Below are positions 25,621-60,391 of a stretch of DNA of 64,000 nt, in pieces. Source of the DNA: Planctomycetota bacterium (GTDB taxonomy: Bacteria; Planctomycetota; MHYJ01; WSZJ01); the NCBI GenBank assembly GCA_038060895.1, contig JBBTCT010000007.1, forward strand, positions 68,023-132,022, read 5' to 3'. The notes beneath the pieces are model-generated. The model had not been told where the DNA came from. It searched no databases and was given only the letters and a program-made list of their open reading frames with translations. Numbering within the stretch: the stretch's first letter is position 1; each line of letters begins with the position of its first letter. The position numbers and the translations under genes were made by a program.

Positions 25621-25723
25621 GTCTCACCTCGCGAGCGGAATCGTTGGGGCCGTGGACGCTCCGCGCGCAATGCGGGCGGAGTCCGGGCGCCGCGATCAGG
25701 TCAGCGACAGGCGCGAGGCGCGG

Positions 25724-26113
25724 CTAGCAGCGCAGGACGTGGTGGCGGGAACCCGCCGCGACTACTCGAACGGCCGTTTCGACGGACCGGGCCGCTTCGG
25801 CACACGAAGCGCCGATGGAGAGAAGTTGCGCAGGAGGCGAAGCGACCGCCGCGTGGGCCTTGTGAATCCCGCTGGAAACCGGCGAGAGGATGTCGGTGCA
25901 GTCGCCGCAATCGGGCCCGGCAGCGAGGTGCGGCCCGCCGTCCTCGTCGCATCCGCCTTCTTCGTCGCAACAGGCGTCGTCGGAATCGCAGCACGCAAGC
26001 GCCTCGACCTCGTAGGCGAGGTGGCCGTTGTCCCCGATGCAGAGGATGGTGCCGCTCGTCGCAACGAGGGCGATCGTGTGGAAGAGACAGAGGAGGAGGG
26101 CGACCGTGCGCAT
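25724..26113 (-). CDS. small exported Cys-rich leader protein (LRC type, copy A)
   Basis: MRTVALLLCLFH..SG..LCIGDNGH..YE..CC..CC..PDCGDC.D..VLRC; aligns from the first Met with 31162..31563; alternative start at 26131. Confidence 0.75.
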   Translation of the reverse strand: MRTVALLLCLFHTIALVATSGTILCIGDNGHLAYEVEALACCDSDDACCDEEGGCDEDGGPHLAAGPDCGDCTDILSPVSSGIHKAHAAVASPPAQLLSIGASCAEAARSVETAVRVVAAGSRHHVLRC

Positions 26114-26127
26114 GAGGGGGCACTTTA

Positions 26128-29100
26128 TCATGGGGCGGCCGTCTCGATGCGGGGTTTTCTCTCGAGGCCACGGCTCCGAAGAGCCACGAACAGGGTGGGA
26201 AGCACGAACAGCGTGAGCACCGTGGCCGTCGCGAGCCCGCCGATGACCACGGTCGCGAGCGGCCGCTGGACTTCCGCGCCGATCCCGGTCGAGATCGCCA
26301 TGGGCACGAAGCCGAGGCAGGCCACCAGGGAGGTCATGAGCACGGGACGCAGTCGCTGTTCCGCGGCGGAGAGCACGGCCTCGCGCACGGGAGTTCCCGA
26401 ATCGATGAACTGGCGGATCGTGGAGACCATGACCATGTCGGCCAGCACGGATACGCCGGAGAGCGCGATGAAGCCGACGCCGGCGCTTACCGAGAAGGGC
26501 ATCCCGCGCAGGTGGAGCGCCAGCACGCCGCCCGCGACCGCGAACGGGACTCCGGTGAACACGCGCAGCGAGTCCGGGATGTTTCCGTACGTCGCGTAAA
26601 CGAGAAACAGGATCAGGACGAGCGCGAGCGGCACGACCCACGCGAGCGTCTTCATCGCGCGCACCAGGTTCTCGTACTGCCCGCCGAATTCCACGCGGCA
26701 GTTCGCGGCCCTGAGCTCGGCTCCGAGCTGCGCGTCGATCGCCGACCTCGCTTCCGAGACAAACCCGCCCAGGTCGCGCCCTTCGACGTTCACGCTCACC
26801 GTTGCCAGGCGCTTCCCCCATTCCCGCGTCACGACCATCGGCCCCGTCTCGCGCGTGACCCTGGCGACCTGCGAGAGGGTGAGCCGGCCGCCGCCGGGCG
26901 TGGGGAGCAGCAGCGATCTCAGCCCCTCCTCCCCCGTCGTAAGCCTCTCGGGGAGGCGGATGGCGAGCGGGAAGCGCCGCGAGCCGGCGCGGATCTCTCC
27001 GGCGTCGAGCCCGCCGGCAGCCTCGACCCAGTCAAGCACGTCGGCGGCGCGCAGGCCGTGGCGCGAAAGCTGGGCAGGGTCGAGTTTCACCTGCAGGACC
27101 GGCTGGCCCACGAGGCGTTCGGCGGACGGATTTGACGCGCCCGGAATGCCGCGCAGGACCTGCTCGACCCGCGCCGACATCGTCTTCAGCGCCTCGTAGT
27201 CGTCCCCGATCACCTTCACGCCGACATCCGTCCGGACCCCGGCGATCATCTCGTTGAAGCGCATCTCTATCGGCTGCGTGAACGAGAAGTTCATGCCGGG
27301 AAGCGGCTTGAGCGCGCGGTCGATGGCGGCGCGAAGCTCTTCCTTGGTGCGCGCTTTCTTCCACTTTTCCCGCGGGTGCAGGATGACGAAGACGTCGCTG
27401 ACCTCGATTCCCATCGGATCGGTCGCGACCTCCGGCGTCCCCGTCCGGGTCCAGACGGTCGCGATCTCGTCGCGGAATTCGTCGAGGAGAAGCCGCTCGA
27501 TTTCGGTCGAGAAGCGGGCCGACTCTTCGATCGAGACGCCGGGGAACCGCACCGTGTTGATGACGATCGATCCCTCGTCGAGCTTGGGGACGAAGATCGC
27601 GCCCAGTTTTCGCGCGAGCGGGATCGTGCCTAAAACCACGATGAGGGCGCTTCCCAGCACGAGCACGCGATGATCGACCGCGAACCGCACCGCCGGACGG
27701 TAGAGGCGCTTGAGCCCTCGGATGATCCAGGGTTCGTGATGGCCGCCGCCGCCGCGGCGCAGGAGAAGGCTCGCGAGGACGGGCATGAGCGTCAGGGAAA
27801 GGACCATCGAGCCCATGAGCGCGAAGATCACGGTCAGCGCCATCGGCCGGAACATTTTCCCTTCGACCCCGGCGAGCGCGAGGATCGGAAGGTAGACGAT
27901 CATGATGATGAGTTCGCCGAACATGGTGGGCTTGCGGACTTCGCTTGCGGCCTCCGCGACGATCTCCGTCACGGGGCGGCCGGTCGTGTCTTCCTGGAGA
28001 TGGCGCACCGAGTTCTCGACCATGATCACGCTCGAATCGACGATGAGGCCGAAGTCGATCGCCCCGAGCGACATGAGCGTGCCGGCGATGCCGAGCGCCC
28101 ACATGGCGGGGAACGCGAAGAGGAGTGACAGCGGGATGGCGGCGGCGACGATGAGCGAGGCCCGGAAGTGCCCCAGGAAGAGGAAGAGGATGGCGATGAC
28201 GAGGAGAGCGCCTTCGACGAGATTGCGTCGGACGGTGTCGAGGACGTGGTCCACCAGTTCGGTGCGGTCGTAGACGACGCGAACGCGCGCGCCGTTCAAC
28301 TCCGGGGACTTTCGGATCTCTTCCATTTTTTTGCGCAGGCGCCCCGCGACCACGTGACTGTTTTCGCCCATGAGCATGAAACCGAGGCCTAGAACTGTTT
28401 CGCCGCGCCCGTCCGCCGTGACGACGCCGCGCCGCGGCACGGTCCCGATGAGGACGTCGGCCACGTCCTTCACGCGTACGGGGCGGCCGTCGTGAGAACG
28501 CAGCGTGATGCCGCCGATTTCTTCCGGAGTCGACGTGAGCCCGATCCCGTGGACGAGCAGGATTTCGCCCGATCCCGCGGAAGCGCCGCCGCCCACGTTG
28601 AGGTTCGAGCGTTCGAGCGCTTCACGAAGGTCCTGAAGCGTCGCGCCGTGCTTGATGAGGCGCGCCGGGTCGGCGACGACCTGGAACTGCTTTTCGAATC
28701 CGCCCCACGCGTTGACTTCCGCGACTCCCGGCACCGACAGGAGTTGGGGCTTGATGACCCAGTCGTGCGTCGTGCGGGCGTCGGTGACGTCCCCGTTCGG
28801 GGCCGTGACGATGTAATGGTAGATCTCGCCGAGCCCGGTTGCGACCGGGCCCATTTCGGGGGCGTCGATACCCGGGGGAAGTTCGATCGACTGCATCCGC
28901 TCGAGGATCTGCGAACGCGCGGACCAGACGCTGGTGCCGTCCTCGAACACCAGGGTCACTTGTGACAGCCCGTACTTCGACATCGAGCGCACCAACCTCA
29001 ACCCCGGCATGCCGCTCATCACGGCCTCGACGCGCGCGCTGATCTGCTGCTCGACCTCGACAGGCCCGAGCCCGGGCGCCACGGTATTCACCTGCACCAT

Positions 29101-29235
29101 GACGTCCGTCACGTCCGGAAACGCGTCCAGCGGCAGCCGCTGGAACGCGGCCGCCCCCAGGAGCGCCAGTGAAGCGCAAAGCACCACCACCAGCGCCCGG
29201 TGGCGAAGCGAGAAGTTGATGACGGCATTCAGCAT
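26128..29235 (-). CDS. czcA: CzcA-type heavy-metal efflux RND permease
   Basis: PLDAFPDVT, GPVATGLGEIY, TM4 SLGAIDFGLIVDSSVIMVEN, RLRPVLMT, GAEVQRPLATVVIGGL. Confidence 0.93.
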   Translation of the reverse strand: MLNAVINFSLRHRALVVVLCASLALLGAAAFQRLPLDAFPDVTDVMVQVNTVAPGLGPVEVEQQISARVEAVMSGMPGLRLVRSMSKYGLSQVTLVFEDGTSVWSARSQILERMQSIELPPGIDAPEMGPVATGLGEIYHYIVTAPNGDVTDARTTHDWVIKPQLLSVPGVAEVNAWGGFEKQFQVVADPARLIKHGATLQDLREALERSNLNVGGGASAGSGEILLVHGIGLTSTPEEIGGITLRSHDGRPVRVKDVADVLIGTVPRRGVVTADGRGETVLGLGFMLMGENSHVVAGRLRKKMEEIRKSPELNGARVRVVYDRTELVDHVLDTVRRNLVEGALLVIAILFLFLGHFRASLIVAAAIPLSLLFAFPAMWALGIAGTLMSLGAIDFGLIVDSSVIMVENSVRHLQEDTTGRPVTEIVAEAASEVRKPTMFGELIIMIVYLPILALAGVEGKMFRPMALTVIFALMGSMVLSLTLMPVLASLLLRRGGGGHHEPWIIRGLKRLYRPAVRFAVDHRVLVLGSALIVVLGTIPLARKLGAIFVPKLDEGSIVINTVRFPGVSIEESARFSTEIERLLLDEFRDEIATVWTRTGTPEVATDPMGIEVSDVFVILHPREKWKKARTKEELRAAIDRALKPLPGMNFSFTQPIEMRFNEMIAGVRTDVGVKVIGDDYEALKTMSARVEQVLRGIPGASNPSAERLVGQPVLQVKLDPAQLSRHGLRAADVLDWVEAAGGLDAGEIRAGSRRFPLAIRLPERLTTGEEGLRSLLLPTPGGGRLTLSQVARVTRETGPMVVTREWGKRLATVSVNVEGRDLGGFVSEARSAIDAQLGAELRAANCRVEFGGQYENLVRAMKTLAWVVPLALVLILFLVYATYGNIPDSLRVFTGVPFAVAGGVLALHLRGMPFSVSAGVGFIALSGVSVLADMVMVSTIRQFIDSGTPVREAVLSAAEQRLRPVLMTSLVACLGFVPMAISTGIGAEVQRPLATVVIGGLATATVLTLFVLPTLFVALRSRGLERKPRIETAAP

Positions 29236-29270
29236 GACGCTGTGCTCACGCCCTCAGTTGAGAATTGTGA

Positions 29271-29301
29271 TTTTGAGTTGGGGTTGGAGTTGGGATTTGT
29301 C
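29271..29301. repeat. G-rich hexamer repeat element (copy 1)
   Basis: GAGTTG GGGTTG GAGTTG GGATTTGTC; a 19-mer (29283-29301) is identical to 43778-43796. Confidence 0.6.
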
Positions 29302-29345
29302 CTGGCCGTTAAGTCGCGCCCACGGCGCAACTACTCCTCCGGGCA

Positions 29346-30635
29346 TCAGCCCGCCCCCATCTGCCCCTTCATCGCCTCCGTCTTCAGCAGGAAACTCCCC
29401 GTAGTCGCCACTTTTTCCCCCGCGACCAATCCTCCTTTCACCTCGAACCCTCCCTCGAACTCCGCGCCCGTTTCGATCTTCCGCGCCTGGAACACCCGCG
29501 CGGTCGTCTCCACGAACACCAGCAGGCAGTCCCCGTCGTTCTGCACCGCCTCGCGCGGAACCAGCAGCTTCGCCTCCGCCGACTTCACCGTGATCTCCGC
29601 CCGCCCGAACATGTGAGCGCGCAGAAGCCCGTCGGCGTTCTTCACCTCCGCATACGCCTTCACCGTGCGCGTCTCGTCGTCCACCGATCCTCCGAGGGAC
29701 ACCACTTTTCCGACGAACTTCTTCCCGGGGAACGACTCGAGCAGGAAAACCGCCCGCTGCCCCGCGACCACACGCGTCAGGTCGCTCTCCGGCAGGTCGA
29801 TCACGACCCACATCCTCTCGACGGAAGCGATTTCAAAGAGCGGGCGCTCCGGGGAGGCGGCCTCTCCCACGACCGCCGACGCCGCGACCACCGTCCCGGC
29901 AAATGGCGCCGAGACCGTGAGCGAGGCCGAGACGTCCTTGCCCTTTTCCACCTCCGAAACCTGCTCCTCGGAAAGCCCGAGCCCGCGCAGCCGAAGGGCC
30001 GCGGCCTGCACCATCAGCCGGGCTTCCTCCAGCACCGTGCGCGCTTCCAGTTCGTCCTTCCCCGCGACCAGGCGCTTCTCGAACAGCTCCCTGGTCTTCG
30101 TGTACAGCTCCTGGCGCAGTTCGCGTGCCGCCACGGCCTGCAGGTGTGCGGCCTTGGCCTGCGACAGCTCGGCCGAGTCGACGATGGCGAGCGGCGTCCC
30201 GGCCTCGACCTGCTGCCCGAGCGCCGCGGACACCGAGCGCACGACGCCGCCCAGCCGCGGCCCGACTCGCGCCCAGGCCGACGGTACGAACTCCGTCTCG
30301 GCATTGCCGCGCGCGGTTTCCGCGATGGCACGGGACTCGACGGCGGCCGTGCGGACCCCTGCACGTTCGGCGGCGCCTGGGCCAAGCTCGATTTTCACGA
30401 GGGTGTTCGGACACTCCCCCTCTTTCGGCTCTCGCATGCGGGTCACCACCGTTCCGCCCCGCGCCAGCTTCGGGTTGCAGGATTCACACTTCGACAACTC
30501 GACCTGGTGCGGCTCGCACCAGTCCGTCCCATGCGCGGGAGGCCCCTCCCAGGGCAGCCGCCCGTGACCCGCGGTCCATGCGAACGCGGAAATCAGCGCA
30601 AGGAACACCACTCCGGTCAGGATCGACGATTTCAT
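29346..30635 (-). CDS. czcB: CzcB-type RND periplasmic adaptor with N-terminal Cys/His motif
   Basis: DWCEPHQVELSKCESCNP; SAPFAGTVV, VDDETRTVK, VPREAVQ, GEKVATTGSFLLK. Confidence 0.9.
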   Translation of the reverse strand: MKSSILTGVVFLALISAFAWTAGHGRLPWEGPPAHGTDWCEPHQVELSKCESCNPKLARGGTVVTRMREPKEGECPNTLVKIELGPGAAERAGVRTAAVESRAIAETARGNAETEFVPSAWARVGPRLGGVVRSVSAALGQQVEAGTPLAIVDSAELSQAKAAHLQAVAARELRQELYTKTRELFEKRLVAGKDELEARTVLEEARLMVQAAALRLRGLGLSEEQVSEVEKGKDVSASLTVSAPFAGTVVAASAVVGEAASPERPLFEIASVERMWVVIDLPESDLTRVVAGQRAVFLLESFPGKKFVGKVVSLGGSVDDETRTVKAYAEVKNADGLLRAHMFGRAEITVKSAEAKLLVPREAVQNDGDCLLVFVETTARVFQARKIETGAEFEGGFEVKGGLVAGEKVATTGSFLLKTEAMKGQMGAG

Positions 30636-30644
30636 GGCCCCCTC

Positions 30645-31085
30645 CTATTTCCCCTGGCAGTCGTCGCAGAGTTCGGATTCGCCGTTGTCACCCTTTTCCC
30701 AGCCGCAGTCGGTGCAGTACGCGTACGACACCCACTTGTCCCCGTCCTTGACCTCGTACTTCCAGACCCCGATGTACTGCGCCTTCGCAAAGGTCCAGCC
30801 GTGGATCCGGACTTCCTTTCCGCGAAGCTTCTCATTCGTGATCACGCCGTGTCCGTGCACGTTGTCGACAAGGGTCCACATCTTTCCCTCGGCGTCCTTG
30901 AGGCCCTGGGCGTGCTTGCTGTGAAGCGTGCACTGCGCGTCGGCGCCTTCCTTGTCCAGTTCGCAACCGACGCAGACGATGGTTCCGGCGGTCTGGGTGA
31001 GTTTCTTGAAGTCGGGCTTCTTTGCTTCGTCGCCCGCGAGGACGGCGAGCGGAACGGCGAGAAGGGCAATGCAGAGGGTCTTCAC
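30645..31085 (-). CDS. secreted Cys/His-rich hypothetical protein
   Basis: AAGGAG RBS, GTG start, signal peptide; CVGC, CTLHSKH, YCTDC, CDDC. Confidence 0.8.
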   Translation of the reverse strand: MKTLCIALLAVPLAVLAGDEAKKPDFKKLTQTAGTIVCVGCELDKEGADAQCTLHSKHAQGLKDAEGKMWTLVDNVHGHGVITNEKLRGKEVRIHGWTFAKAQYIGVWKYEVKDGDKWVSYAYCTDCGWEKGDNGESELCDDCQGK

Positions 31086-31161
31086 GGGAGTTCTCCTTGG
31101 AAGGATGTTGGAAGAGAGTTTTAGCGTAAAAGCTGTATTTACGTAGTGCCAGCGGCGGCGC

Positions 31162-31563
31162 TTAGCAGCGCAGCGGCAGAGGCACGGGCGGTCCGCACGT
31201 CAGGGGCCCGCCCGCCGCGAAGTTCGACCCCGCGGCGTTCCCGTTCACGACCTCGGCGACCCGGATCTCCTCGGGCGCCGCTCCGATCGGATGCAGATCC
31301 ACCGCCACTCCGCTCATCATGGGCGCAAGCCCGTCCACGCAGCCGCCACAGTCCGGCGCCGCCTTCAGGATGTCGCCCTGCTCCTCTTCAGCCTCGCACT
31401 GCTCGCAGCAGGGCTCCGCCTCAGCAACCGGCTCGCCGCAGCACTCGTCCCCCGTCCACTCGTACTCCGCGTGCCCGTCGTTCCCGACGCACAGGGCCAC
31501 GCCCGACGTCATGAGGACCGCGGTGAAGTGAAGGACGCAGGCGATGGTGGCGATGATCCTCAA
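31162..31563 (-). CDS. small exported Cys-rich leader protein (LRC type, copy B)
   Basis: TTG start; H..SG..LCVGNDGH..YE..CC..CC..PDCGGC.D..PLRC; paralog of 25724..26113. Confidence 0.75.
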   Translation of the reverse strand: MRIIATIACVLHFTAVLMTSGVALCVGNDGHAEYEWTGDECCGEPVAEAEPCCEQCEAEEEQGDILKAAPDCGGCVDGLAPMMSGVAVDLHPIGAAPEEIRVAEVVNGNAAGSNFAAGGPLTCGPPVPLPLRC

Positions 31564-31601
31564 GCCCGTTCATCCTAGCAGAAACCGAAAACGCCGGGCG
31601 G

Positions 31602-32363: not shown

Positions 32364-32402
32364 TCGTGACCCCTCTCATCAGGCCGGAACATGGGCCGTC
32401 CC

Positions 32403-32740: not shown

Positions 32741-32759
32741 AGAATAGCGCGAAAGAGAC

Positions 32760-34608: not shown

Positions 34609-34617
34609 GGAAGTGCA

Positions 34618-36927
34618 CTAACCGACGAGCTTCTTGAGCGCCGCTTCCGCCGCCTCGCGAACCAGGGCTTCCGGATCGTTCAGCAGCTCACGAAGCTGGG
34701 GAAGGGTGGGCGCGGCGAGGTCGCGACGGCAATTGCCGATTCCGGCGCACGCCGCGGCCCTCACGCCCGCGTCGGGATCCTTGAGAAGCACGGAGAGCGG
34801 TTCCAGCGGGTCGGGGTCTCGCGAGCCGACCTTCCCCAGCGCGGCCGCCGCGTGGATGCGGGTTGCCGCCTCCGGGTGCTTCGAAGCCTCGGCGAGTGCG
34901 GGGATGGCGACTTCGCGGAAGAGCGGGCCGATGGTCGACATCATGGTCGTGATGTTGCTGGTGAGCGCGCGGAGTGCTGCGGCGATGACGCGGCCGTCCT
35001 TGTCTTTCACGAGGGCGGCGATTTTCGCGACGGCGGCGCTCTGGTCGGCGCAGCCGTCGAGGTACGGCATCACGCAGGTGGCCCGGACTTCGCCGTCGGT
35101 GTCCGCGAGCGCGGCCTCGCAGGCCCTGGAAGTGTCGGAGTCGTGCGCCCCGATCCCGGAGAGGGCGGCGGCGGCGGCTCGCCGCAACGGAACGTCCGGG
35201 TCGCGAAGCAACAGGCAGAGTGCGGGAATGGCCGCGGCGCCCACCTGGCCCGTGGCGCCGAGTTTTTCGGCGCCCAGAAGGCGCATCGCGGTGTCGGTGC
35301 CCTCCACCAGCGCGACCAGCGCAGGCACCCCGGCGGCGCCCATGCCGCTCAACGCGTCGGCGGCCGCCAGGCGGACGTCCTTGTCCCCGTCGGCGAGAAG
35401 CGCAGCGACCGCTGCGGCCGCGGGCGCGCCAATCGCCTTCAGCGCTTCGGTCGCCGCGAGGCGGTGGCCTGGAGATGGCGGATTGCGGAAGACTTCCAGG
35501 ACCGCAGGGACGACCGCGACGCCCGAGGCGCCCAGGGCGCGGATGGCGGCGGCCCGCGTGAACGGATCCGGCGATCCCAGCGCCTCGACCGCCTGCGGCG
35601 ACGCGCCTGCCCCGAGTCGTCCGAAGGCGTCGGCCGCGGCAGCCCTCACTTCGGCGTCCTCGTCCTTGAACGCACGGACGAGAGAAGCGGCGGCCGGGGC
35701 GGCGGCGGCGCCCGCTTCGCCCAGCGCGGCGCATGCGCGGCGTCGCGCGGCGGGGGAAGGGAGAGCGAGGGCGCCCTCGATGAAATCGATGGCGGGGGTG
35801 CCTATGCGGCCGAGAGCCCACACGGCCTTGCCCGCCACGAATTCGTCCTCTTCTCCGAGGATTTCCGCGAGGGCGGACGAGGCGGCTGCCGCGGCGGGGC
35901 CGATGACGCCCAGTGCGGTGGCGGCGGCGGCGCGGGATTTCGGATCGGCGTCGGCGAGCCCTTCGGTCAAGGCAGGGACGGCCGCTTCACCAAATCCCCC
36001 CATCGCCTTGTAAGCGCGGGCGCGGATCGCGGGGCGCGCGCCCTTGAGGTTTTTGCGGACGGGCTCGAGAGCCGAGGGGCCTACTTTTGCGAGGGACTCA
36101 GCCGCGACTTCGGCGACGGCCTCGTTCGAGTCCGACAGAAGCACGGCGAGCGCTTCGGCGGCCGGCGCCGCGCCGGCGCCCATGCGCCAGAGGCCCCGGA
36201 CGCCGGCAAGCCGGAGCGCCAGGTCGGGATCGCCGATGGCTTCAATGAACGGTTCGAGGGGAGGCTGGACGGCGGGAAGCATGGCCGCCAGAGCCACGAG
36301 CGCGCGCACCCGGATCGGGCGACCGGTTTCCCGGCAGGCCGCGACGATGTCCGGCACCGCCGGCTGGCCGATCGCGCCGAGAGCCTGCACCGCCATTTCA
36401 CGGACACGGCTCGAATCGTCGGCCAGAGACAGGACGAGAGCGGCGGAAGCGGGAGCGGCGTACGCGGCGAGGGCCCGGAGCGCGTCGGCGGCGGCGACGC
36501 GGACGACGGGGTCTTCGTCGGCGAGGGCCAGCGCCAGCGCCGGGACGCCCGCGGCCCCTTGCGCCCCCATCACGGCGAAGGATGTCGCCGCGGCGGCGCG
36601 CACGTCGGCGTGCTTATGGTGAAGCAATTCGAGCAAGGTAGGGATGGCGCCCGGTCCGATGCGGCCGAGGGCCACGATGGCCGCGCCCTGCTCCTGTCTG
36701 TTCGGGGACTCAAGGACAACGGCCCACTGGGCGATGTCCTTGCCCTGGTAGGAATTCAGCGCCGGGAACTTCGTTTCGTTCGGGGACCGTTCTCCCCCGG
36801 CCGGAACCGCGGCGGCGCCCTGCCCCGGGGGCGGAAGCGGCGCGGGTGCCGGAGTTTTTTTTTCGCAGCCGGTCGCGAGGAGCGTGAGCCCGGCAACCGC
36901 CGCAGCAAGCCTCTTCATCAACCGCAT
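34618..36927 (-). CDS. HEAT/PBS-lyase repeat lipoprotein
   Basis: Lipobox-like ATGC; many L.D.D..VR..AA.AL repeats across about 700 aa. Confidence 0.88.
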   Translation of the reverse strand: MRLMKRLAAAVAGLTLLATGCEKKTPAPAPLPPPGQGAAAVPAGGERSPNETKFPALNSYQGKDIAQWAVVLESPNRQEQGAAIVALGRIGPGAIPTLLELLHHKHADVRAAAATSFAVMGAQGAAGVPALALALADEDPVVRVAAADALRALAAYAAPASAALVLSLADDSSRVREMAVQALGAIGQPAVPDIVAACRETGRPIRVRALVALAAMLPAVQPPLEPFIEAIGDPDLALRLAGVRGLWRMGAGAAPAAEALAVLLSDSNEAVAEVAAESLAKVGPSALEPVRKNLKGARPAIRARAYKAMGGFGEAAVPALTEGLADADPKSRAAAATALGVIGPAAAAASSALAEILGEEDEFVAGKAVWALGRIGTPAIDFIEGALALPSPAARRRACAALGEAGAAAAPAAASLVRAFKDEDAEVRAAAADAFGRLGAGASPQAVEALGSPDPFTRAAAIRALGASGVAVVPAVLEVFRNPPSPGHRLAATEALKAIGAPAAAAVAALLADGDKDVRLAAADALSGMGAAGVPALVALVEGTDTAMRLLGAEKLGATGQVGAAAIPALCLLLRDPDVPLRRAAAAALSGIGAHDSDTSRACEAALADTDGEVRATCVMPYLDGCADQSAAVAKIAALVKDKDGRVIAAALRALTSNITTMMSTIGPLFREVAIPALAEASKHPEAATRIHAAAALGKVGSRDPDPLEPLSVLLKDPDAGVRAAACAGIGNCRRDLAAPTLPQLRELLNDPEALVREAAEAALKKLVG

Positions 36928-36934
36928 TGTAGAC

Positions 36935-38014
36935 TCACCGGACCGGCTTCGCCTTCTCCCACGCACCCTTCGCCTTCTCTTCCTCGCTCTTCGCCGCGGC
37001 AGCCAGCTGCTCCAGCTCCTGCAGCCCCGCCAACGCCTCCGCTTCCGCCGCCGCCGCCGCCTTCGCGTCCTTCTCCGCCTTCGCTTCCCCGGCCTCGGCA
37101 GCGCTGATGGCCGCTCCGAGCGACGCCGCGAGCTTCTCCAGGTCCGCCACTCGCCGTTCGGCCTGCGACAGGTCGAACTCCGCCATCGCGAACGCCTTCT
37201 TCGCCCGGCGCAGGTCCAGGTCCGCCTGCCCCGCCACGTTCGGCTCCTCGCGCTGCGCCCGCAGCCGCTCCTGGTCGTAGAACCACTGCGCCCGCTCGAC
37301 CGCCCGCTCCGCGCTGTCCCGCGAACGGTCCGCCGCCTTCACGTCCGCTTCCGCACCCGGGATCGCCGCTTCCGTGTCCGCATGTTCGCGCGTCCGCGCG
37401 ACGATCGCCCGCGCAGCCGCATCCCGCGACGCTTCCGCCCGCTCCCTGGCATGGCGCTCGCGCAAAGCAGCCGCGCGCCCCGCCGCAAGGCGCTCGTCCA
37501 TCTTCTTGCGGATCTGCTGCGAAAGCCGCCAGGAATACTCCAGCGGATGCGTCCAGCGGCCCTCGAAGCGCACCCACCCGCGCCCCTGGTAGTACGTGTC
37601 CGGGTCCTGCCACTCCCCAGCAACCAGGTGCCAATCGCGCGAGGCCAGCTCGTCCGAGGCGGCCTTGAAGTCCGGGTCGAGCGTGGCCGCCGCGATGAAA
37701 TGCCGGATCGCGTCCTTCTCGAGTTTCACCGACTCCAGCCACTCCGCGAGCTCGAACTGCGACTTCGCGTCCTTCTCGTCGAGATCCTTCATCCGCTCCG
37801 CGTATTCCTGCTCCGGCGTGAGCTTCTCTTCGATCGACGCAATCTTGTCTTTCTCCAGCGTGATCGCCCCCATGCGGAGCTTCACCTTCACGACGTTCCC
37901 GTCGTCCGAAATCACGTCGCCCTCGATGACGCGGCCATCCTTCAGCGTGATCAGGTCGGCCCGCGCCCTTCCAGCGGCGAGGACAAGTGCGGCCAGAACG
38001 AGTGCCCGTTTCAT
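36935..38014 (-). CDS. secreted hypothetical protein with coiled-coil C-terminus
   Basis: MKRALV signal peptide, ADLITLKDGRVIEG, RGWVRFEGRW, Ala/Glu-rich tail. Confidence 0.8.
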   Translation of the reverse strand: MKRALVLAALVLAAGRARADLITLKDGRVIEGDVISDDGNVVKVKLRMGAITLEKDKIASIEEKLTPEQEYAERMKDLDEKDAKSQFELAEWLESVKLEKDAIRHFIAAATLDPDFKAASDELASRDWHLVAGEWQDPDTYYQGRGWVRFEGRWTHPLEYSWRLSQQIRKKMDERLAAGRAAALRERHARERAEASRDAAARAIVARTREHADTEAAIPGAEADVKAADRSRDSAERAVERAQWFYDQERLRAQREEPNVAGQADLDLRRAKKAFAMAEFDLSQAERRVADLEKLAASLGAAISAAEAGEAKAEKDAKAAAAAEAEALAGLQELEQLAAAAKSEEEKAKGAWEKAKPVR

Positions 38015-52180: not shown

Positions 52181-52199
52181 GCCGCCCGCAACAGCCTCA

Positions 52200-53096: not shown

Positions 53097-53771
53097 ATGG
53101 ACCCCATGTCACACCCCGCGATCATGATCGGGACCGGCGCCGTTCTCGGACTGGCGCACGCGTTCGACCCGGATCACATCGCCGCAATGACGGCGTTCGT
53201 GGGAAGCGCGCCCTCGGTGCGAAACGCGATTGGATACGCGGGACGGTGGGCGGCAGGGCACGGGCTGATGGTGCTCGCGGTCGGCGTGATCGCGATGAAC
53301 CTCAAGATCGGCGAAGGGTTCATGGGACCGTGGGGAGAGCGCATCGTCGGCGCGACGCTGATCCTGATTGCGCTCTGGTCCTTCCGCCGCGCCTTCAGGC
53401 TGCACATGCACGTCCACGAGCACGCCGACGGAACCATGCACGCCCACGCCCACTCGCACGCCGGCGGACCGGCCCACGTCCACCGCCATGCGCCGACCTT
53501 CATGGGCCTGCTTCACGGCCTCGCCGGATCGGGCGCCGTCGTAGTGGCCATCCCCACGGCCTTCGCGGGCTCAGAAGCGATGGCCTTCTTGTTCCTTGCC
53601 GCCTTCGGCGTTGGCGTGACGGTCTCGATGCTCTGCTACGCGATCAGTGTCGCGGCAATGGTCCGGCGGAGAAGCGCGCCGAGCCTGGGATTCCAGAAGA
53701 CGATCAGCATCGTCGCCGGCTCGTTCAACCTGGTTGTGGGCATCCTGTGGATTGCCGGCGTGACCGGGTAA
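53097..53771 (+). CDS. Ni/Co permease-like membrane protein (UreH/NiCoT-like)
   Basis: GLAHAFDPDH, His-rich loop HMHVHEH..HAHAHSH, GLLHGLAGSG. Confidence 0.85.
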   Translation: MDPMSHPAIMIGTGAVLGLAHAFDPDHIAAMTAFVGSAPSVRNAIGYAGRWAAGHGLMVLAVGVIAMNLKIGEGFMGPWGERIVGATLILIALWSFRRAFRLHMHVHEHADGTMHAHAHSHAGGPAHVHRHAPTFMGLLHGLAGSGAVVVAIPTAFAGSEAMAFLFLAAFGVGVTVSMLCYAISVAAMVRRRSAPSLGFQKTISIVAGSFNLVVGILWIAGVTG

Positions 53772-53811
53772 ATTGTCCGGCGTTCTTATGTCGTCGCGTA
53801 GCATGCCCGTC

Positions 53812-55239: not shown

Positions 55240-55250
55240 CGGCGGACCGC

Positions 55251-56528
55251 TTACTTCAACCGGTCGAGCATGCTGCCTGCCCGGTCGCGCACGACGTTGG
55301 TCGAACCTTCGCGCTCCGCTGCGTACAGGGCATCCCGGAATTCGGCAACCGCCTGGGCGGCGACCACAATCTCAATCGCCTTGTGAGCCACCGCGGGACT
55401 GTCGAGCATCGCCTGCGACAGCCAGGCGCGGTCGGAAGCGCTGAAGGGACGCGTCAACAGCCTCCCTTCGAGCATTCTCAGAAAGGCCCTCGTCAGCGAT
55501 CTTTCAACAGCTGAGCGCAGGCCGGTCTTCTCGGCGGCCCGCAGATCGGTTTTTTCAGCCTCCATACGGACGCGCCGCGCAATCGCCCACCGTCGACACT
55601 CCGCTGAACCGGTTTCGATTTTGTGATCGAGAAATGCTCCCTCCTTTTCCCCGGGGTGCCATTCGACGCCTCTATAAATGGCGTCCGCGACGCCCCGCTG
55701 GCCTTCGGTCGAAAGAAGAGCCTCGAGCATTGGGAGTTTCTTTTCCGAGCCGATGTGAAGAAGGGCATCGACCGCCTGGATCCGGCGATCCTCCGTTTCT
55801 GACGGGTCGTTCACAACGGCGGTGGCCATCGCGAGAAAGTCAGCTGCGGTCAGGTCTGCGCGACAAAGCCGGAAGATCGCGGAGGAGCGAACACGCAGCA
55901 GAGCCGAACGGATCTGATCCCACTCCGCCGTGCGGGTCGGCGATTCGTATTCCGCGGCGATCCAGATTTCAATCGGTTCCTGCCAAATCATGCGTATTCC
56001 TCCCCAACAACGGTAGTCGACGAGCGGATCGCGGTCGGAAGTGGAATGCGTCCACATTCCGCAGTCTTCGAATAGCCCGACCCAGGCCGAAGCTCGCCGC
56101 CTGCGGCTCGTGGGCTCCGGAAGCAGGTTGAGGTCAAGAAACTCGGGAGGGGTCGTCATCGCAAGGGCCGCTGCCGTGACCACGTCCGGATCCGGATCAC
56201 TCAAAAACGGGCTCAATTGCCCGCGACTGGCTCCCATGGATCTCGCGAGAAACAGCAGCCCGGCGGCCACTGAACGGTTCGCTTCAGTGCGCGCCCGGAG
56301 AAGGACCTGCTCCGGGTGCGACATGCCCTCTTCCTGAAATTTTGAAACCTCTTCAAGCCAGGAGTACAGCGACAACTCTCGAACGCGCGGAGCCGCGATG
56401 AACTCCCCAAGGGCGCGGTGGCCGTCCAGTTCCCGCGCGGCGGCGATGTCGCTGCGACGCGGCACGGGCCGGAGGGCTCCCGACACCAGAAGTCCACCGA
56501 TCCCGATCAGGAGGAGAAGGCGCACCAT
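55251..56528 (-). CDS. hypothetical secreted/membrane protein, HEAT-like
   Basis: N-terminal hydrophobic segment; FLSDPDPDVVTAAALA; atypical codon usage. Confidence 0.55.
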   Translation of the reverse strand: MVRLLLLIGIGGLLVSGALRPVPRRSDIAAARELDGHRALGEFIAAPRVRELSLYSWLEEVSKFQEEGMSHPEQVLLRARTEANRSVAAGLLFLARSMGASRGQLSPFLSDPDPDVVTAAALAMTTPPEFLDLNLLPEPTSRRRRASAWVGLFEDCGMWTHSTSDRDPLVDYRCWGGIRMIWQEPIEIWIAAEYESPTRTAEWDQIRSALLRVRSSAIFRLCRADLTAADFLAMATAVVNDPSETEDRRIQAVDALLHIGSEKKLPMLEALLSTEGQRGVADAIYRGVEWHPGEKEGAFLDHKIETGSAECRRWAIARRVRMEAEKTDLRAAEKTGLRSAVERSLTRAFLRMLEGRLLTRPFSASDRAWLSQAMLDSPAVAHKAIEIVVAAQAVAEFRDALYAAEREGSTNVVRDRAGSMLDRLK

Positions 56529-56578
56529 GCGAGGATTGTATCGCGCTGAGACGACCCAATTGCGCTGCGACTGCGACG

Positions 56579-57157
56579 CTACTTCTTTGCCGCCTCTTCC
56601 ATTTCCGCCATCCTCCCGCGCAGCTTCACGGCAACTTCCCAGCGTTTCGCTCTCGGGTTGTGCAGCGTCACGAGGGTGCGGATCTTGAGGCGCCCGACGC
56701 GCTTGCGGACGCCCTCGAGCAGATCCTCGCTGTCGGGGATCTGCATGGTGATGCGCGGGCCCTGCTCGGCGAGGCCCATCATGGCGGCGAAGGCGCGGAA
56801 GACGTCGGACTCGGTGAGCATGCCGACGACGGTGTCGTTTTTCACGACGGGAAGACCGGAGATCTTCTGCTTGAGCATGAGCAGCGCGGCGCTTTCGAAC
56901 GTGTCGTCGGGCGACACGGTGTAGGGCCCGGGCGTCATCACGTCCTCGATGATTTTCTTCGACGTCGAACGGTCTCCCTTGTGCCGGCCGAGTTCACTCT
57001 CCAGATCGCTCTTCGTGATGATCCCGACGAGCGTCCCGCTCTCGACGACAGGCAGGCGGCGGATGTGGTGCTTCTGCATGAATTCGAGCGCGACCGGGGC
57101 CGGCATGCGGGCCTGAATCGTGACGGCGGGGGAAGACATCCATTCGCGGACGAACAT
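56579..57157 (-). CDS. CBS-domain pair protein (AcuB-like)
   Basis: GAGGAG RBS; MFVREWMS, IRRLPVV..LVGIIT..D, ISGLPVV..VGMLTESD. Confidence 0.92.
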   Translation of the reverse strand: MFVREWMSSPAVTIQARMPAPVALEFMQKHHIRRLPVVESGTLVGIITKSDLESELGRHKGDRSTSKKIIEDVMTPGPYTVSPDDTFESAALLMLKQKISGLPVVKNDTVVGMLTESDVFRAFAAMMGLAEQGPRITMQIPDSEDLLEGVRKRVGRLKIRTLVTLHNPRAKRWEVAVKLRGRMAEMEEAAKK

Positions 57158-57206
57158 GGGAACTCCTCGGGGTGGGTGGAAGAGAGGGCATTGAAGGCAA
57201 AGGCGG

Positions 57207-57243
57207 CGAAACGAAAAACAAAAAACGAAAAGCGAAAACAAAA
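57207..57243. repeat. A-rich short tandem repeat
   Basis: About 5 degenerate C(G/A)AAA(A) units in the divergent promoter region. Confidence 0.55.
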
Positions 57244-57367
57244 CTCGGGCGTTTCCGGACCGTAGCAATGCTGCGGGAAGTAACGGTTCTCGTACAGCCT
57301 CTCACTCGCAGAGAGTGCGGCCCGGAACTTGCGCCATCGGGGAGCAGGCATTAACTCCGCCTTAACC

Positions 57368-57820
57368 ATGAGACGCCTCCTGACTCTTCGCTCCCCCGCT
57401 CTTTCGCGAGCCGTCGCCGCGACTTTTGTGGCGATGTACGCGCTGTTCGCGTCAGGGGCGGCGTTCGGGGCGCTGGACCTGGCTTGCCTGGAACTGGCAG
57501 CACCCCCGTGCAGCCCGGCTCCGGAGGCAGGAAAGAGCGGCTGCGGCTGCGGCCACGCAACCGACGACGGAGCAGGATGCTGCTGCTGTTCCAGGAAGGA
57601 AGCGTCCGCTCCGGAGACCGGCTTTTCATTCACGGCCGCGGCGCAGTGCTCCAATCCCGATTCCGGTTCGGCCGGCAGCATGACGCGCGTGTCGCCTCAC
57701 GTCGCCGCTGAAGCGGCCGAGGCTCCTTCCGTTCAACTCGCCCCGGCCTTCACGCCGCGGGTCCTTTCGCTTCAGTCCCATAAGTCCGCTCCGCCCGACA
57801 AGGTTCCGCTGGCGCACTGA
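57368..57820 (+). CDS. small exported Cys-rich leader protein (PPDKVP type)
   Basis: Hydrophobic N-terminus, CGCGH..CCCC cluster, Ala/Pro linker, ends SAPPDKVPLAH. Confidence 0.7.
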   Translation: MRRLLTLRSPALSRAVAATFVAMYALFASGAAFGALDLACLELAAPPCSPAPEAGKSGCGCGHATDDGAGCCCCSRKEASAPETGFSFTAAAQCSNPDSGSAGSMTRVSPHVAAEAAEAPSVQLAPAFTPRVLSLQSHKSAPPDKVPLAH

Positions 57821-57927
57821 TTTGTCGCGCCGGGCAAGGGCCGCGTGGCCCCTGCTCCCCCATCTACGGAACTTCGCGGCGCCGCCGCTCGACGGCGCGT
57901 CCGCGTCCCCTTCAGCGGAGCACCTCC

Positions 57928-58881
57928 ATGAAATCGTCGTGCCTGCTCGTGCTCGCACTCGCCTCGTTGCCGGCCGCGGCCGACCATGCCGCCGGATCCA
58001 CATCCAGCGACGGCGGACAGATGACGATGTCTCCGGACACGCTCGCTTCCGGGAAGCTGTTTGTCGCGCTTCGCCTGGACGCAGCCGACTTCGAACACGT
58101 TTCCGATGAAGAATTGCACGAAGCCGGCGAAGCGGGTCACAGCCGGCACGGGCTCGACTGGGCCGGCACGGCGGCGCTCGAAGGCGGGTTCGGGATTCTC
58201 GACCGCCTGATGGTCGGCGTCACCATTCCTGTCCGGAGGACGGACGACTTTCGTGAAGCCCCGCACCATGAGGAAGAAGTGGAGGAAGGAGAAGGGTCCA
58301 TTCGCAGCGTCGATCCGGACGGGCTCGGCGACGTCCAGATCTGGGCGCAGCTGAAGATCCTCGACGGGTCGTTCAAGCTCGGCGTACGGCTAGGCCTGGA
58401 GCTTCCGACCGGAGACACGAACGATCGCGGACCCCATGGGGACTATCTCGAGCCGAGTCATCAGGCGGGAAGCGGCTCCCTGGACTTCCTGGGCGGGATC
58501 GCGGCAGGCTATTCCCTCGAGTCCGTCGGAATCCAGGCGGCGCTCACGGGGAAGGTCAACACGCGCGGCGTCCGTGATTTCGAGATGGGCGACACCGTGA
58601 TGCTGTCCGTCGGGGGAAGCTGGCGCTTCTATGGAGAACCCCGAACATTCAGCCTCTCCGTGACCGCGGACGCCTGGGGCCAGTGGTACGGTCGCAACCG
58701 CCACCACGGCCGGGGCGACCCGGACTCGGGTGGATTCCAGTGGTATGCCGCACCGGGCCTCCGGCTCAACGCGGGCCCGTTCTTCGCCCAGCTCGCGGTC
58801 CCGATCCAGATCTACAATGGCGTCAACGAAGAACCCGACCAGCGGCTCCGCGGGGTCCTGACCGCCGGGCTGAACTTCTGA
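57928..58881 (+). CDS. His-rich outer membrane beta-barrel (MetA-pathway/transporter-like)
   Basis: Signal peptide; GLGDV, ELPTG, QAGSGSLD; alternating beta pattern; terminal Phe. Confidence 0.8.
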   Translation: MKSSCLLVLALASLPAAADHAAGSTSSDGGQMTMSPDTLASGKLFVALRLDAADFEHVSDEELHEAGEAGHSRHGLDWAGTAALEGGFGILDRLMVGVTIPVRRTDDFREAPHHEEEVEEGEGSIRSVDPDGLGDVQIWAQLKILDGSFKLGVRLGLELPTGDTNDRGPHGDYLEPSHQAGSGSLDFLGGIAAGYSLESVGIQAALTGKVNTRGVRDFEMGDTVMLSVGGSWRFYGEPRTFSLSVTADAWGQWYGRNRHHGRGDPDSGGFQWYAAPGLRLNAGPFFAQLAVPIQIYNGVNEEPDQRLRGVLTAGLNF

Positions 58882-58897
58882 GGTCAAAAGGAAAACC

Positions 58898-59713
58898 ATG
58901 AATCACTTCAAGGCAGCAGTCATTGCAGCATTCATCCTGCCGCTCGTGGCGCGCGCCGAAGAGGCGCCCGTCGCGGGCGAGCCGGTGACGGTGTTCGTGA
59001 CGGACAAGGACGGCAAGCAGGTGGACACGGAGGGGATGACGGCGACGCTCACGGTGACGATCAAGGGCGCCGGGACGCGGACGGCGGCGCTGACGGCTCG
59101 CAACGCAACGGACCCCGCGGCGAAATCGCCGCCGGCCGAGCATGGCGGGCAGGTCGTTACGACCGCCGACGGATGGCGTGTCGAGTTCGTCCCGGCGTGG
59201 TCGCCCGGCAAGGCGCCGGACGCGCCGTGCTTCGAGGGAACGATCGCGCTCAAGGCGTGGGCATGCCCGATGGCCTGCGTCGATCCCTCGGACAAGGCCG
59301 GCAAGTGCTCGAAGTGCGGGATGGACTTCGAGCTCCTGTCTGTCGACTTCACCGCCAGCGTGTCGATCCGGGGAAAGGACTTCGCGCACGTCGCAAAGGG
59401 CTATGCTGTGCCGACTCCCCTTCCGGCCACCTATGCTGAGGCTGCGACCGAAGCGAAAGACCAGTCCGGATGGGCGTTGAAGAAGAGTTCGGCCGCGCTC
59501 CCACGAGTACGCCGCATACGACGGCTGTTGGAGGGCCTCGTGGAGCTCGCTTCGGCCGGCCAGAAGGACGCTGTGCGTGCGAAAGCGAAAGTGATCTGGA
59601 AGGCGTGCGACGAGGCGGAGAAGGCTCTCGTCGCCGGGCAGGATGCTTCGGAATCTCTCGAGCTCATCAACAAGAAAGTTTCCTCGCTGCCCGCGGAGGG
59701 CGGCGCAAAGTAG
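58898..59713 (+). CDS. secreted protein with heavy-metal-binding domain
   Basis: Signal peptide; EHGG; WACPM..SDKAGKCSKCGMD. Confidence 0.8.
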   Translation: MNHFKAAVIAAFILPLVARAEEAPVAGEPVTVFVTDKDGKQVDTEGMTATLTVTIKGAGTRTAALTARNATDPAAKSPPAEHGGQVVTTADGWRVEFVPAWSPGKAPDAPCFEGTIALKAWACPMACVDPSDKAGKCSKCGMDFELLSVDFTASVSIRGKDFAHVAKGYAVPTPLPATYAEAATEAKDQSGWALKKSSAALPRVRRIRRLLEGLVELASAGQKDAVRAKAKVIWKACDEAEKALVAGQDASESLELINKKVSSLPAEGGAK

Positions 59714-59739
59714 ACCGGTTCCCCTTCGGAGAATTCCCG

Positions 59740-59856
59740 ATGGCCCTGAAGAAATCGTCCTCATGCTGCTGCGGCAGCTCCAGCTGCGGAAGCAGCCCGA
59801 TGAAATCCACGGCCCGCAAGCCGGTGAAGAAGTCGAAGGCCAAGGCGAAGAAGTAG
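59740..59856 (+). CDS. 38 aa Cys/Lys-rich peptide
   Basis: GGAG RBS; MALKKSSSCCCGSSSCGSSPMKSTARKPVKKSKAKAKK. Confidence 0.55.
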   Translation: MALKKSSSCCCGSSSCGSSPMKSTARKPVKKSKAKAKK

Positions 59857-59968
59857 GTTCATTCCTCCCGCCCTCCGCGACCAGCGGAGTGCGGTTTTCC
59901 TGTGCCGAGCCCAGCGAATTGAGAATTGCTTCCCGGACCGGTGCGGTTTTCAGGTACAAGTGGGCCCG

Positions 59969-60310
59969 ATGCGATTCCGTTCGACTCTCAACGCTGCTGT
60001 CTTCGCACTGCTGGCCGTCGCGACCTTCGTCGCCGGCACGGCCGGCCCGCTTCACGAGATCGAGGCGCTTCACGGCCACGAGCATTGCGAAAGCGAAGAC
60101 GGCCAGCCGACAGTCGGACACGTCTGCCACGACGAAGACGATTGCACGGTCTGCGGCCTGCTCTCGCTTCCCTCCTCTGCTGAACCATGTTCTTCACCGG
60201 CGATTGCATCCGAAGCGCCGGCCACTGCTGGTTTCGTACTTTTGGAACGCGCCGTCGCCGCAACGCTCGACCTCAACTCTCCAGCGCGCGCGCCCCCTCC
60301 CCGGGCGTAG
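59969..60310 (+). CDS. DUF2946-like leader protein with C-terminal RAPP motif
   Basis: Signal-like N-terminus, H..H.H.HC..H.CH...CTVC, ends PARAPPPRA. Confidence 0.8.
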   Translation: MRFRSTLNAAVFALLAVATFVAGTAGPLHEIEALHGHEHCESEDGQPTVGHVCHDEDDCTVCGLLSLPSSAEPCSSPAIASEAPATAGFVLLERAVAATLDLNSPARAPPPRA

Positions 60311-60391
60311 GTCCGATTCGCGCCGTCTTACGCCGCAGCATCATGGGATGCCTCCGCGGCCATTCTTCAATCGCACACGGGGAGAGACTCC

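Follow-up and report, generated by a model that had tools for sequence, protein, structure and literature searches.

Extracytoplasmic metal sensing by a nascent chain has so far been shown for CruR and CutF only, both of them members of DUF2946 whose motifs are based on proline. CruR (Bp2923) of Bordetella pertussis, the prototype of DUF2946, carries a CXXC motif followed by 45 residues and RAPP, a spacing that is conserved to within 1-2 residues in more than 2000 DUF2946 proteins and is functionally important; copper relieves the arrest, and Rho then terminates transcription ahead of the importer gene (PMC9426467). CutF of Rhodobacter capsulatus is exported co-translationally, and copper prolongs its Sec-dependent stalling at a Pro-rich end, which opens the Shine-Dalgarno (SD) sequence of cutO (PMC9973294; bioRxiv 10.1101/2025.02.05.636593); 45 residues separate the CxxxC of CutF from that end, and the protein is degraded rapidly after export (PMC9973294). 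Here we consider four small leader genes, A to D, in a stretch of 64,000 nucleotides (nt) from the genome of an uncultured planctomycete (contig JBBTCT010000007.1; G+C content 66%; hereafter the window). On balance we think it probable, from their sequences and those of their relatives, that all four encode leader peptides of the CutF/CruR kind, which act in cis, are exported co-translationally and sense metals, each gene being the first cistron of its transcript. This interpretation is supported by their invariant C-termini, by spacers that are constant in length and evolve near-neutrally, by strict positional linkage, by covarying pairing between the leader tail and the next SD in C and D, and by the CruR hallmarks of D.

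Related arrangements have been described in other bacteria. CzcI of Cupriavidus metallidurans, which lies ahead of czcCBA and is without a proline motif, is discussed as a metal-sensing regulator, and whether it acts in cis or in trans is left unsettled in that discussion (PMC9973294); in Caulobacter a DUF2946 gene precedes czrCBA (PMC4176598). Among small secreted proteins encoded ahead of metal genes, RAPP and RGPP are over-represented at the C-terminus (Fujiwara et al., PMC12992588), and arrest motifs that abut the stop codon are known, for example NSP-stop and DGMK-stop (PMC10987492). A preliminary description of the window had presented its leaders as a new extension of the mechanism to efflux operons. 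That claim to novelty cannot be kept, since the principle, including its link to RND pumps and outer-membrane factors (OMF), is already published for CutF-like proteins and CzcI (Ozturk et al. 2023, PMC9973294; PMC4176598); the new part is two candidate C-terminal motifs.

Four leader genes with a common layout

The four open reading frames (ORFs) of 113-150 amino acids (aa) listed in the preliminary description are all present at the coordinates given there, and they are real, conserved genes in an uncultured Planctomycetota genus. Leader B (31162-31563, minus strand; 133 aa, TTG start) consists of a hydrophobic N-terminus, the motifs LC.G.DGH..YE, CC, CC..C and CGGC.D, a variable spacer and the ending GPPVPLPLRC-stop. 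Leader A (25724-26113, minus strand; 129 aa) has an ATG start that lies 14 nt past the stop codon of a pump gene, RND1; it is a paralogue of B (37% identity, E 2.5e-14) and ends HHVLRC-stop. Leader C (57368-57820, plus strand; 150 aa) has a basic and hydrophobic N-terminus, then CGCG..CCCC, C.NPDSG and RVSPH, a variable spacer of 34 residues and SAPPDKVPLAH-stop, while leader D (59969-60310, plus strand; 113 aa) combines a hydrophobic N-terminus with LHE.EAL.GHEHC, H.CHDED.CTVCGLL, a 44-residue spacer and ARAPPPRA-stop. Long spurious frames are abundant in GC-rich DNA, and G+C at third codon positions, which is 0.80-0.87 in neighbouring genes, 0.81 in A and 0.90 in B, is merely 0.73 in C and 0.68 in D; chance open frames as an account of the four are nonetheless ruled out by their conservation: as many as 7 further genomes of the genus, and metagenomes as well, contain protein homologues that keep the invariant residues. 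We regard the probability of this explanation as negligible.

Our order-level comparison comprised 12 genomes including the window's own, 7 others from the genus and 4 from other genera. The comparison genomes are metagenome-assembled and 81-94% complete, so failure to find a leader family in one of them does not show its absence. Of these genomes, all 7 from the genus contain the A/B family and 0 of the 4 from other genera of the order do; the C family was found in 4 and the D family in 5 of the same 7. Close homologues are scarce even in a collection of 5.8 billion proteins (clusters: B 6, C 5, D 3, counts that include the window's own protein), and a genome-wide screen of the 5.4-Mb assembly returned A to D as the sole convincing leader ORFs, together with 3 extra candidates of poor coding quality.

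No homology was detected among the A/B, C and D families (hhalign probabilities 0.4%, 4.6% and 9.3%), and the single layout that the preliminary description had ascribed to the four ORFs is seen in each of the three: the N-terminus is hydrophobic, a Cys/His cluster follows, and a variable spacer leads to an invariant motif at the C-terminus. The N-terminal hydrophobic segment, which may be a cleavable signal or a membrane anchor, is present in all four leaders, and the Cys/His positions are invariant within families. Within the genus families the spacers evolve fast, yet without insertions or deletions. Between the two closest genomes the ratio of non-synonymous to synonymous substitution in the spacers is 0.58 (A), 0.54 (B) and 0.79 (D), against 0.07, 0.08 and 0.16 for the RND pump, its membrane-fusion protein (MFP) and the OMF, and leaders are 54-66% identical where pump genes are 81-93% identical. 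An AlphaFold2 model of B, built on a 60-sequence alignment, has a confident N-terminal helix (residues 2-19) and a small sheet around the Cys motifs, and leaves the last ~50 residues without secondary structure (predicted local distance difference test, pLDDT, 40-67).

The position of the leaders is equally constant. Across the loci compared, a leader lies 70-140 nt from its partner, the same partner each time; in the window the distances are 103 (A), 76 (B), 107 (C) and 81 nt (D), in agreement with the range of about 75-110 nt given previously. B-type leaders stand ahead of a u146-MFP(-RND) set in 8 of 8 loci and A-type leaders ahead of an OMF gene in 3 of 3, a fourth copy being on a short contig where the next ORF has no assignment. 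Leader C precedes the gene for a 317-aa barrel in 4 of 4 genomes, and the gene after D is porin-like in 6 of 7 loci and znuB directly in the seventh. The preliminary description had proposed that homologues be collected, and had held that homologues unlinked to metal transporters would speak against its hypothesis; within the genus we find that the C-termini, the spacer length and the class of downstream gene are conserved, and that the leaders stay linked to the same downstream genes.

The C-terminal motifs were in part redefined by this comparison. For A and B the proposed LRC signature stands within the genus, where [LP]RC-stop ends 12 of 12 copies (11 LRC, 1 PRC) with codons that vary synonymously (CTG/TTG/CTC, CGC/CGT, TGC/TGT), but it is the end of a longer element, described below, in which Cys is the last residue in just 54 of 130 relatives. 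The distance from CxxC to the C-terminus is 56-59 residues in all 12 copies, though the position of CxxC itself spans 62-81, a range of 19 residues. For C the proposed signature PPDKVP contracts to [DE]KVP[LI], which is followed by 2-5 more residues and present in 9 of 9 family sequences, whereas PP is missing in 4 of the 9; there are zero gaps between R..PH and KVP among these sequences, which are 23-71% identical. The RAPP of D proved to be conserved as proposed, in 8 of 8 family sequences, as is C[TQA][VT]C, and with the CxxC-to-RAPP spacing that is a hallmark of CruR: the second cysteine of CxxC is 48 residues from the second proline of RAPP, with 44 residues intervening between the motifs, in 7 of 7 loci, including the one in which 8 residues trail RAPP rather than the 1-3 of the other six.

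D has much in common with CruR. Like CruR, it is a small exported protein that heads an operon whose first gene is of outer-membrane importer type; it has CxxC, 44 residues and RAPP where CruR has 45, and its RAPP lies 1-3 residues ahead of the stop in 6 of 7 loci (3 in CruR). C exceeds G in a region of its spacer codons, as in CruR, and the predicted protein is poorly structured. It differs from CruR in its His-rich motif (GHEHC, H.CHDED.C), in the Zn-type unit (ZnuA, ABC-3) downstream, where CruR has a TonB-dependent copper importer, in the pairing of its RAPP codons with the next SD, where CruR uses Rho-dependent termination across a 162-nt intergenic region, and in its planctomycete host. 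Sub-threshold matches to DUF2946 (Pfam PF11162) occur in 5 of 8 family members, the best with E 2e-4, and the window's own D scores 17.4 bits (E 0.008) against a gathering score of 23.7 bits; a PF11162 search of its own genome gave one weak match, which contains a stop. Having the motif and spacing but missing the Pfam cut-off, D is to be called CruR-like rather than a certified member of DUF2946. It is also the only one of the four to resemble RAPP-type arrest peptides of the ApdA/ApdP class, as a small protein that has a localisation signal and carries RAPP close to its C-terminal end.

The other leaders are closer to CutF in architecture than in sequence. CutF combines a signal sequence, a Cys motif, a spacer of about 45 residues and a Pro-rich C-terminus with a short intergenic region that folds so as to mask the SD of the following gene. 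The leaders are built on similar lines, their hydrophobic N-terminal segment being a putative signal sequence, and A and B have the neighbours OEP, ACR_tran and HlyD_D23 which, with TonB-type genes, are the commonest around 5,334 CutF-like proteins (PMC9973294). The size and gap rule for CutF-like proteins is satisfied by A (129 aa), B (133 aa) and D (113 aa), while C, at exactly 150 aa, misses it by one residue; the gaps are 76-107 nt. A departs from the CutF-like rule in having no PP in its last 15 residues, where B, C and D do, and the A/B spacing of 56-59 residues differs from the 45 of CutF. The invariant residues of A/B and C are LRC-stop and [DE]KVP[LI], not prolines, and membership of either family in DUF2946 was considered and is unsupported (weak matches in 2 of 60 superfamily and 0 of 9 C sequences). 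By position and published description A resembles CzcI, being a small Cys/His protein without a strict proline motif directly upstream of a heavy-metal RND operon of C-B-A order. With ApdA, ApdP, uA_NSP-stop and uDF_DGMK-stop the leaders have in common an N-terminal localisation signal, conservation mainly in a short C-terminal motif and the position of an upstream ORF (PMC10987492, PMC10951233), and LRC abuts the stop codon as some X-stop arrest motifs do (PMC10987492); unlike the ApdA/ApdP class, which monitors secretion and precedes secA, secDF or yidC, they carry Cys/His clusters and precede metal transporters.

The mechanism we envisage is as follows. The N-terminal hydrophobic segment would bring the nascent chain to the Sec translocon. 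By the time translation arrives at the C-terminal motif, the Cys/His cluster would trail the peptidyl-transferase centre by a fixed distance, 44 residues in D and 56-59 in A/B, and with this spacing it would sit at the periplasmic exit of the translocon or slightly past it. Metal binding to the cluster may then alter the pulling or folding force on the chain and lengthen or relieve a ribosome pause. The pause would be a RAPP elongation arrest in D; in C it would occur at [DE]KVP[LI], and in A/B on the stop codon itself, at LRC. We would expect a true pause at the motif in D with considerable confidence; for C we lean slightly towards one, and for A/B our opinion is almost evenly divided, inclining a little towards doubt. 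Occupancy of the leader's 3' end would set expression of the transporter genes, in C and D because the paused ribosome would cover an anti-SD otherwise paired with the next gene's SD, and in B, possibly in all four, because it would obstruct Rho, as in CruR, on an intergenic region that is rich in C and poor in G.

Leader tails, intergenic regions and transcription

Complementarity between the leader's 3' end and the next SD had been proposed for three of the four leaders. It holds for C and D, where the anti-SD and SD covary and where alone perfect runs of 7-10 bp are clear, but is not conserved for A and is lacking in B. In C, the sequence GGTTCCGCTGGC in the last codons (57802-57813, plus strand) forms a duplex with 57911-57922, around the next gene's SD, with GCTCCGC in the SAPP codons as a second option; in D, CCTCCCCGGGCG in the RAPP-region codons (60296-60307, plus strand) forms one with 60373-60385 (CGGGGAG, where the porin-like gene has its SD), which suggests translational control. 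The paired sequences differ between genomes, for example GGUUCCGCUGGC/UUCAGCGGAGCA and CUCUCCCGAGGA/CUCUCGGGAGAU for C, and CCCGCAAGGGC/ACCCUUGCGGA and CCUCCCCGGGCG/GCACACGGGGAGA for D. Cognate duplexes are more stable than non-cognate ones in both families, at -15.4 versus -12.0 kcal/mol for C (the best of 24 permutations, a fraction of 0.042, the minimum attainable; n=4) and -17.6 versus -14.8 kcal/mol for D (permutation fraction 0.0175; n=7), statistics which rest on related sequences and on Pro and Ala codons that are inherently complementary to GGAG. In A, the 103-nt intergenic region (25621-25723, minus strand) contains the best anti-SD, in a stretch just past the stop codon that pairs with the OMF SD (GCCUCGCG/CGCGAGGU) and that is not conserved in the closest relative.

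The intergenic regions offer a second possible read-out. C exceeds G in 23 of 23 of them, there is a C>G stretch in the D spacer codons, and Rho is encoded in the genome, so Rho-dependent attenuation as in CruR is a live alternative. The B-to-u146 region (31086-31161, minus strand; 76 nt, and 73-80 nt in 8 of 8 loci) is G-poor and C/U-rich, has a G fraction of 0.16-0.26 across the 8 B-type loci, and contains a conserved AAACTCTCTTC as well as a hairpin across the leader stop. These features, together with the C-rich and G-poor composition of the intergenic regions in general and the anti-SD pairing in C and D, would also be expected if the regulatory element were RNA alone, a set of hairpins, a rut site or an attenuator, with the ORFs translated incidentally or to load ribosomes and the peptide irrelevant. 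Such an element would leave the protein-level conservation unaccounted for: the amino-acid motifs are kept through synonymous changes, the Cys/His positions are invariant, and a peptide profile of A/B finds 134 relatives with the same protein layout and quite different base composition. We consider an RNA-only explanation very improbable.

A/B-family mRNAs are probably leaderless, to judge from a -10-like element close to the start codon and the lack of any SD ahead of the start codons in this family. In B an extended -10-like TGnTAnnnT (31572-31580, minus strand) ends 8 nt ahead of the start codon; across the family TAnnnT ends 7-9 nt ahead of the start in 12 of 12 copies, and 9 of the 12 have the full TGnTAnnnT, where custom pattern counts give a genome background per position of 1e-3 and 4e-5, respectively. 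Leader A has its own element, TGaTAAAGT (26122-26130, minus strand), which overlaps the RND1 stop and suggests an independent promoter for the A unit. A canonical sigma-70 scan found 0 promoter-like sites, and terminator-like sites were no more frequent than in shuffles. TACAAGT- or TAGAACT-like words occur 7-8 nt upstream of D-family leaders. In the metatranscriptome of an aquifer study (one sample, 3 runs) there are contigs that match parts of the efflux region at 99-100%, at a depth of ~2 that may include DNA carry-over and in a form that records neither strand nor transcript ends; one of these contigs, 470 nt long, spans most of leader A and 88 nt of its intergenic region, and B is among the parts without cover.

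The LRC superfamily and its hydrophobic C-terminus

The 134 relatives of A/B were retrieved at E<=0.001 by a profile search of 1.84 billion representatives, and the 130 shorter than 185 aa were analysed as a superfamily, leaving aside one of 1875 aa, two of at least 185 aa and the window's own A. Their common features are LC.G.DGH..E, CC, C..C.D and a C-terminal logo, L-R-[TS]-V-V-L-[RL]-[CILV]-stop, in which position -3 is L in 115 of 130 and position -1 is occupied by C (54 members), I (28), L (19) or V (14), together 115 of 130. PP is found in the last 15 residues of 48 members and in the last 30 of 75. The members are named 'hypothetical protein' in their sources, which are Planctomycetota and Kiritimatiellia, and none of 10 tested matches Pfam or NCBIfam at E<0.001, the best Pfam match having E 0.001, below the cut-off. 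The profile matches 82 of 401 sampled Planctomycetota genomes and 67 of 288 genera. At 26 loci outside the genus, an OMF gene is next in 20, none was found by tblastn in five, and one locus is cut. Two loci (L052, L064) have tandem superfamily leaders ahead of one OMF gene, with ends that are RC-stop or a near variant.

The plasmids pK2D_1 (L076, 3723-4136) and pPL62-1 (L077, 3887-4258) of cultured planctomycetes carry small Cys-rich exported ORFs, annotated as hypothetical, 167-180 nt upstream of a czcB-type adaptor gene. They end ASLLL-stop and QNFRC-stop, respectively, and are like the superfamily in layout; we did not accept them as members, the similarity not being significant (hhalign 3% and 7%).

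The superfamily logo suggests another explanation, that the leaders, above all A, B and their superfamily, are stable metal-binding accessory proteins, anchored in the membrane or periplasmic, or else sensors of the pumps that act in trans, in the manner of CzcI or of a chaperone. Their L-[RL]-[CILV]-COOH terminus would be a free ligand of the sort that PDZ domains and C-terminal proteases bind, used for docking to a partner or as a degron. Hydrophobic C-termini are recognised by PDZ proteases. The logo is hydrophobic, strand-like and anchored to the free C-terminus, and matches no arrest motif in the literature compared; the model of B places a small sheet around the Cys motifs, B is without an anti-SD, and for CzcI, which has no proline motif, a role as a metal-sensing regulator is under discussion (PMC9973294). 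A degron would moreover be useful to a protein which, like CutF, is degraded rapidly once exported. Stable accessory proteins would not, on the other hand, be expected to have spacers that are near-neutral yet constant in length, a C-terminal third that is predicted to be unstructured, far faster evolution than the pump genes beside them, or a location always 70-140 nt upstream of the same partner, and a degron leaves the fixed distance to CxxC within the genus unexplained. For the leaders as a group we find this explanation unlikely; for LRC in particular, docking or degradation through a free hydrophobic C-terminus fits about as well as a ribosome pause, and it is the main rival to the leader-peptide interpretation.

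Several observations weigh against that interpretation as well. Ribosome stalling, metal binding and regulation are predictions from sequence, and neither LRC/LRTVVLRC nor [DE]KVP[LI] resembles an arrest motif in the literature compared, within which we found no published description of either ending; the supplementary logos of the 29 clusters in PMC9973294 lay outside that comparison. The score of D against DUF2946 is, as noted, below the Pfam threshold. Across the superfamily the CxxC-to-end distance is 55-76 residues in 106 of 108 measured cases, with extremes of 30 and 90, and its standard deviation (sd) of 6.4 is no tighter than that of another interval between motifs (sd 5.7), a scatter which confines any strict ruler to the genus. 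Stop codons outside the genus (TAG 15, TGA 9, TAA 3) show no universal preference, and 5 of 12 A/B-family leaders start with TTG or GTG, which is unusual for leaderless mRNAs. At the RNA level, shuffles reach the observed tail:SD energy in the window alone at fractions of 0.43 (A), 0.33 (B), 0.16 (C) and 0.05 (D); B duplexes show no complementarity (cognate -10.1, non-cognate -10.9 kcal/mol; permutation fraction 0.86); one of the four C loci in the permutation test (L025) has a doubtful downstream start, and one D locus (L035) has no pairing. In silico masking of a ribosome footprint at the leader end frees the SD inconsistently, in some loci only, and RNAalifold on 8 B-type tails with their intergenic regions gives a weak consensus (-3.2 kcal/mol). 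Stop-codon preference was also considered as a sign of stalling at release-factor action and rejected: the genus avoids TGA (0 of 12 A/B copies; TAG in 7 of 7 D loci), the wider superfamily does not, and kinship confounds the comparison.

Downstream genes and significance

The genes that follow A and B form two consecutive efflux units on the minus strand, in the order alpha/beta hydrolase, B, u146, MFP1, RND1, A, OMF, MFP2, RND2. The first gene after B encodes u146 (30645-31085), a secreted Cys-rich protein of 146 aa that contains three CxxC-type pairs and matches nothing in Pfam or NCBIfam. Its gene separates the B-type leader from the gene for the adaptor in 8 of 8 loci, and u146 may be a periplasmic metal chaperone. 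It is followed by MFP1 (29346-30635), a HlyD_D23 adaptor like CusB/CzcB, and by RND1 (26128-29235), an ACR_tran pump of CusA/CzcA type with 47% identity to the Cupriavidus metallidurans copies. Leader A is not merely a gene between pump and OMF; it heads a second RND unit of C-B-A order, in the position of CzcI, which consists of the OMF (24187-25620; OEP family), MFP2 (22524-24185; a HlyD-type adaptor with a His-rich N-terminus, its start set by eye at MKQIVAA) and, as the last gene, RND2 (19294-22524; ACR_tran, start approximate). With OEP, HlyD-type adaptor and an ACR_tran pump closest to CusA/CzcA, the A/B units have the composition that defines heavy-metal (HME) RND systems.

On the plus strand, leader C is followed by the 317-aa protein (57928-58881), modelled as a 12-strand outer-membrane beta-barrel with His/Glu-rich loops and without a Pfam match, and by a secreted 271-aa protein (58898-59713) with a sub-threshold match to the heavy-metal-binding domain (HMBD). 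The barrel model, built from 5 sequences only (pLDDT 61, predicted template-modelling score 0.64), is closest to FapF and a COG4313 channel, at template-modelling scores of 0.52-0.64. Leader D is followed by a porin-like outer-membrane protein (60392-61717; 441 aa, with a signal peptide, a C-terminal Phe and no family match), a ZnuA-type periplasmic metal-binding protein (61720-62772, start approximate) and an ABC-3 (ZnuB-type) permease with C-terminal HEAT repeats (62769-64000), which runs off the window. The earlier division into two efflux and two uptake units can thus be kept for A and B, as CusA/CzcA-type efflux, and is reasonable for D; with a barrel and a sub-threshold HMBD protein, 'uptake' is not established for C. 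Nor are there MerR, Fur or two-component genes among the flanking genes scanned, which include some but not all of the ORFs between 32.4 and 50 kb, and to that extent the preliminary statement that no such regulator adjoins the leaders is borne out.

A 229-aa CBS-pair protein (56579-57268, minus strand) is encoded divergently from leader C. Five other genomes of the genus have it beside the C/D locus too, with 81-95% identity, far above that of the leaders; it may be a regulator or a metabolite sensor of the locus. In the closest relative (G005; L032/L038) leader C and about 265 barrel codons are gone, the last ~50 barrel codons remaining by the CBS gene, and the D operon is intact. In another relative (G009; L040, 1489-1926) the gap from C to the barrel gene is ~436 nt, compared with ~110 elsewhere, and holds a further ORF with a signal-peptide-like start. 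The genes downstream of three distant C-like copies have no identity assigned, and a search of the ESM Atlas with C returned unnamed look-alike clusters only. Elsewhere in the window, other HEAT-repeat proteins are encoded near the ABC-3/HEAT fusion (34618-36966 and 55251-56528), and a 224-aa protein (53097-53771, plus strand) with a weak, sub-threshold match to the nickel transporter NicO lies 285 nt from a divergent TPR gene.

The window thus sets side by side three unrelated families with the same geometry, one of them with the known RAPP motif and two with undescribed invariant endings. It is possible, though we hold it to be rather doubtful, that the LRTVVLRC-type end (L-R-[TS]-V-V-L-R-C-stop, acting at termination) and [DE]KVP[LI] are two new ribosome-pausing signals that originated independently of RAPP, the first being the sensor of a phylum-wide family that switches heavy-metal RND/OMF operons on leaderless mRNAs, and that three convergent solutions to the sensing of periplasmic metal during translation are gathered in one 35-kb stretch. 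The LRC superfamily is without a Pfam or NCBIfam model, and yet is found in about a fifth of sampled Planctomycetota genomes, mostly ahead of an OMF gene; annotation pipelines currently label the leader genes hypothetical or overlook them. If the new endings do pause ribosomes, they would represent new arrest chemistries, and the principle of sensing metals through a nascent chain would have arisen several times. If they do not, the superfamily would still be an unnamed and widespread accessory component of heavy-metal RND pumps.

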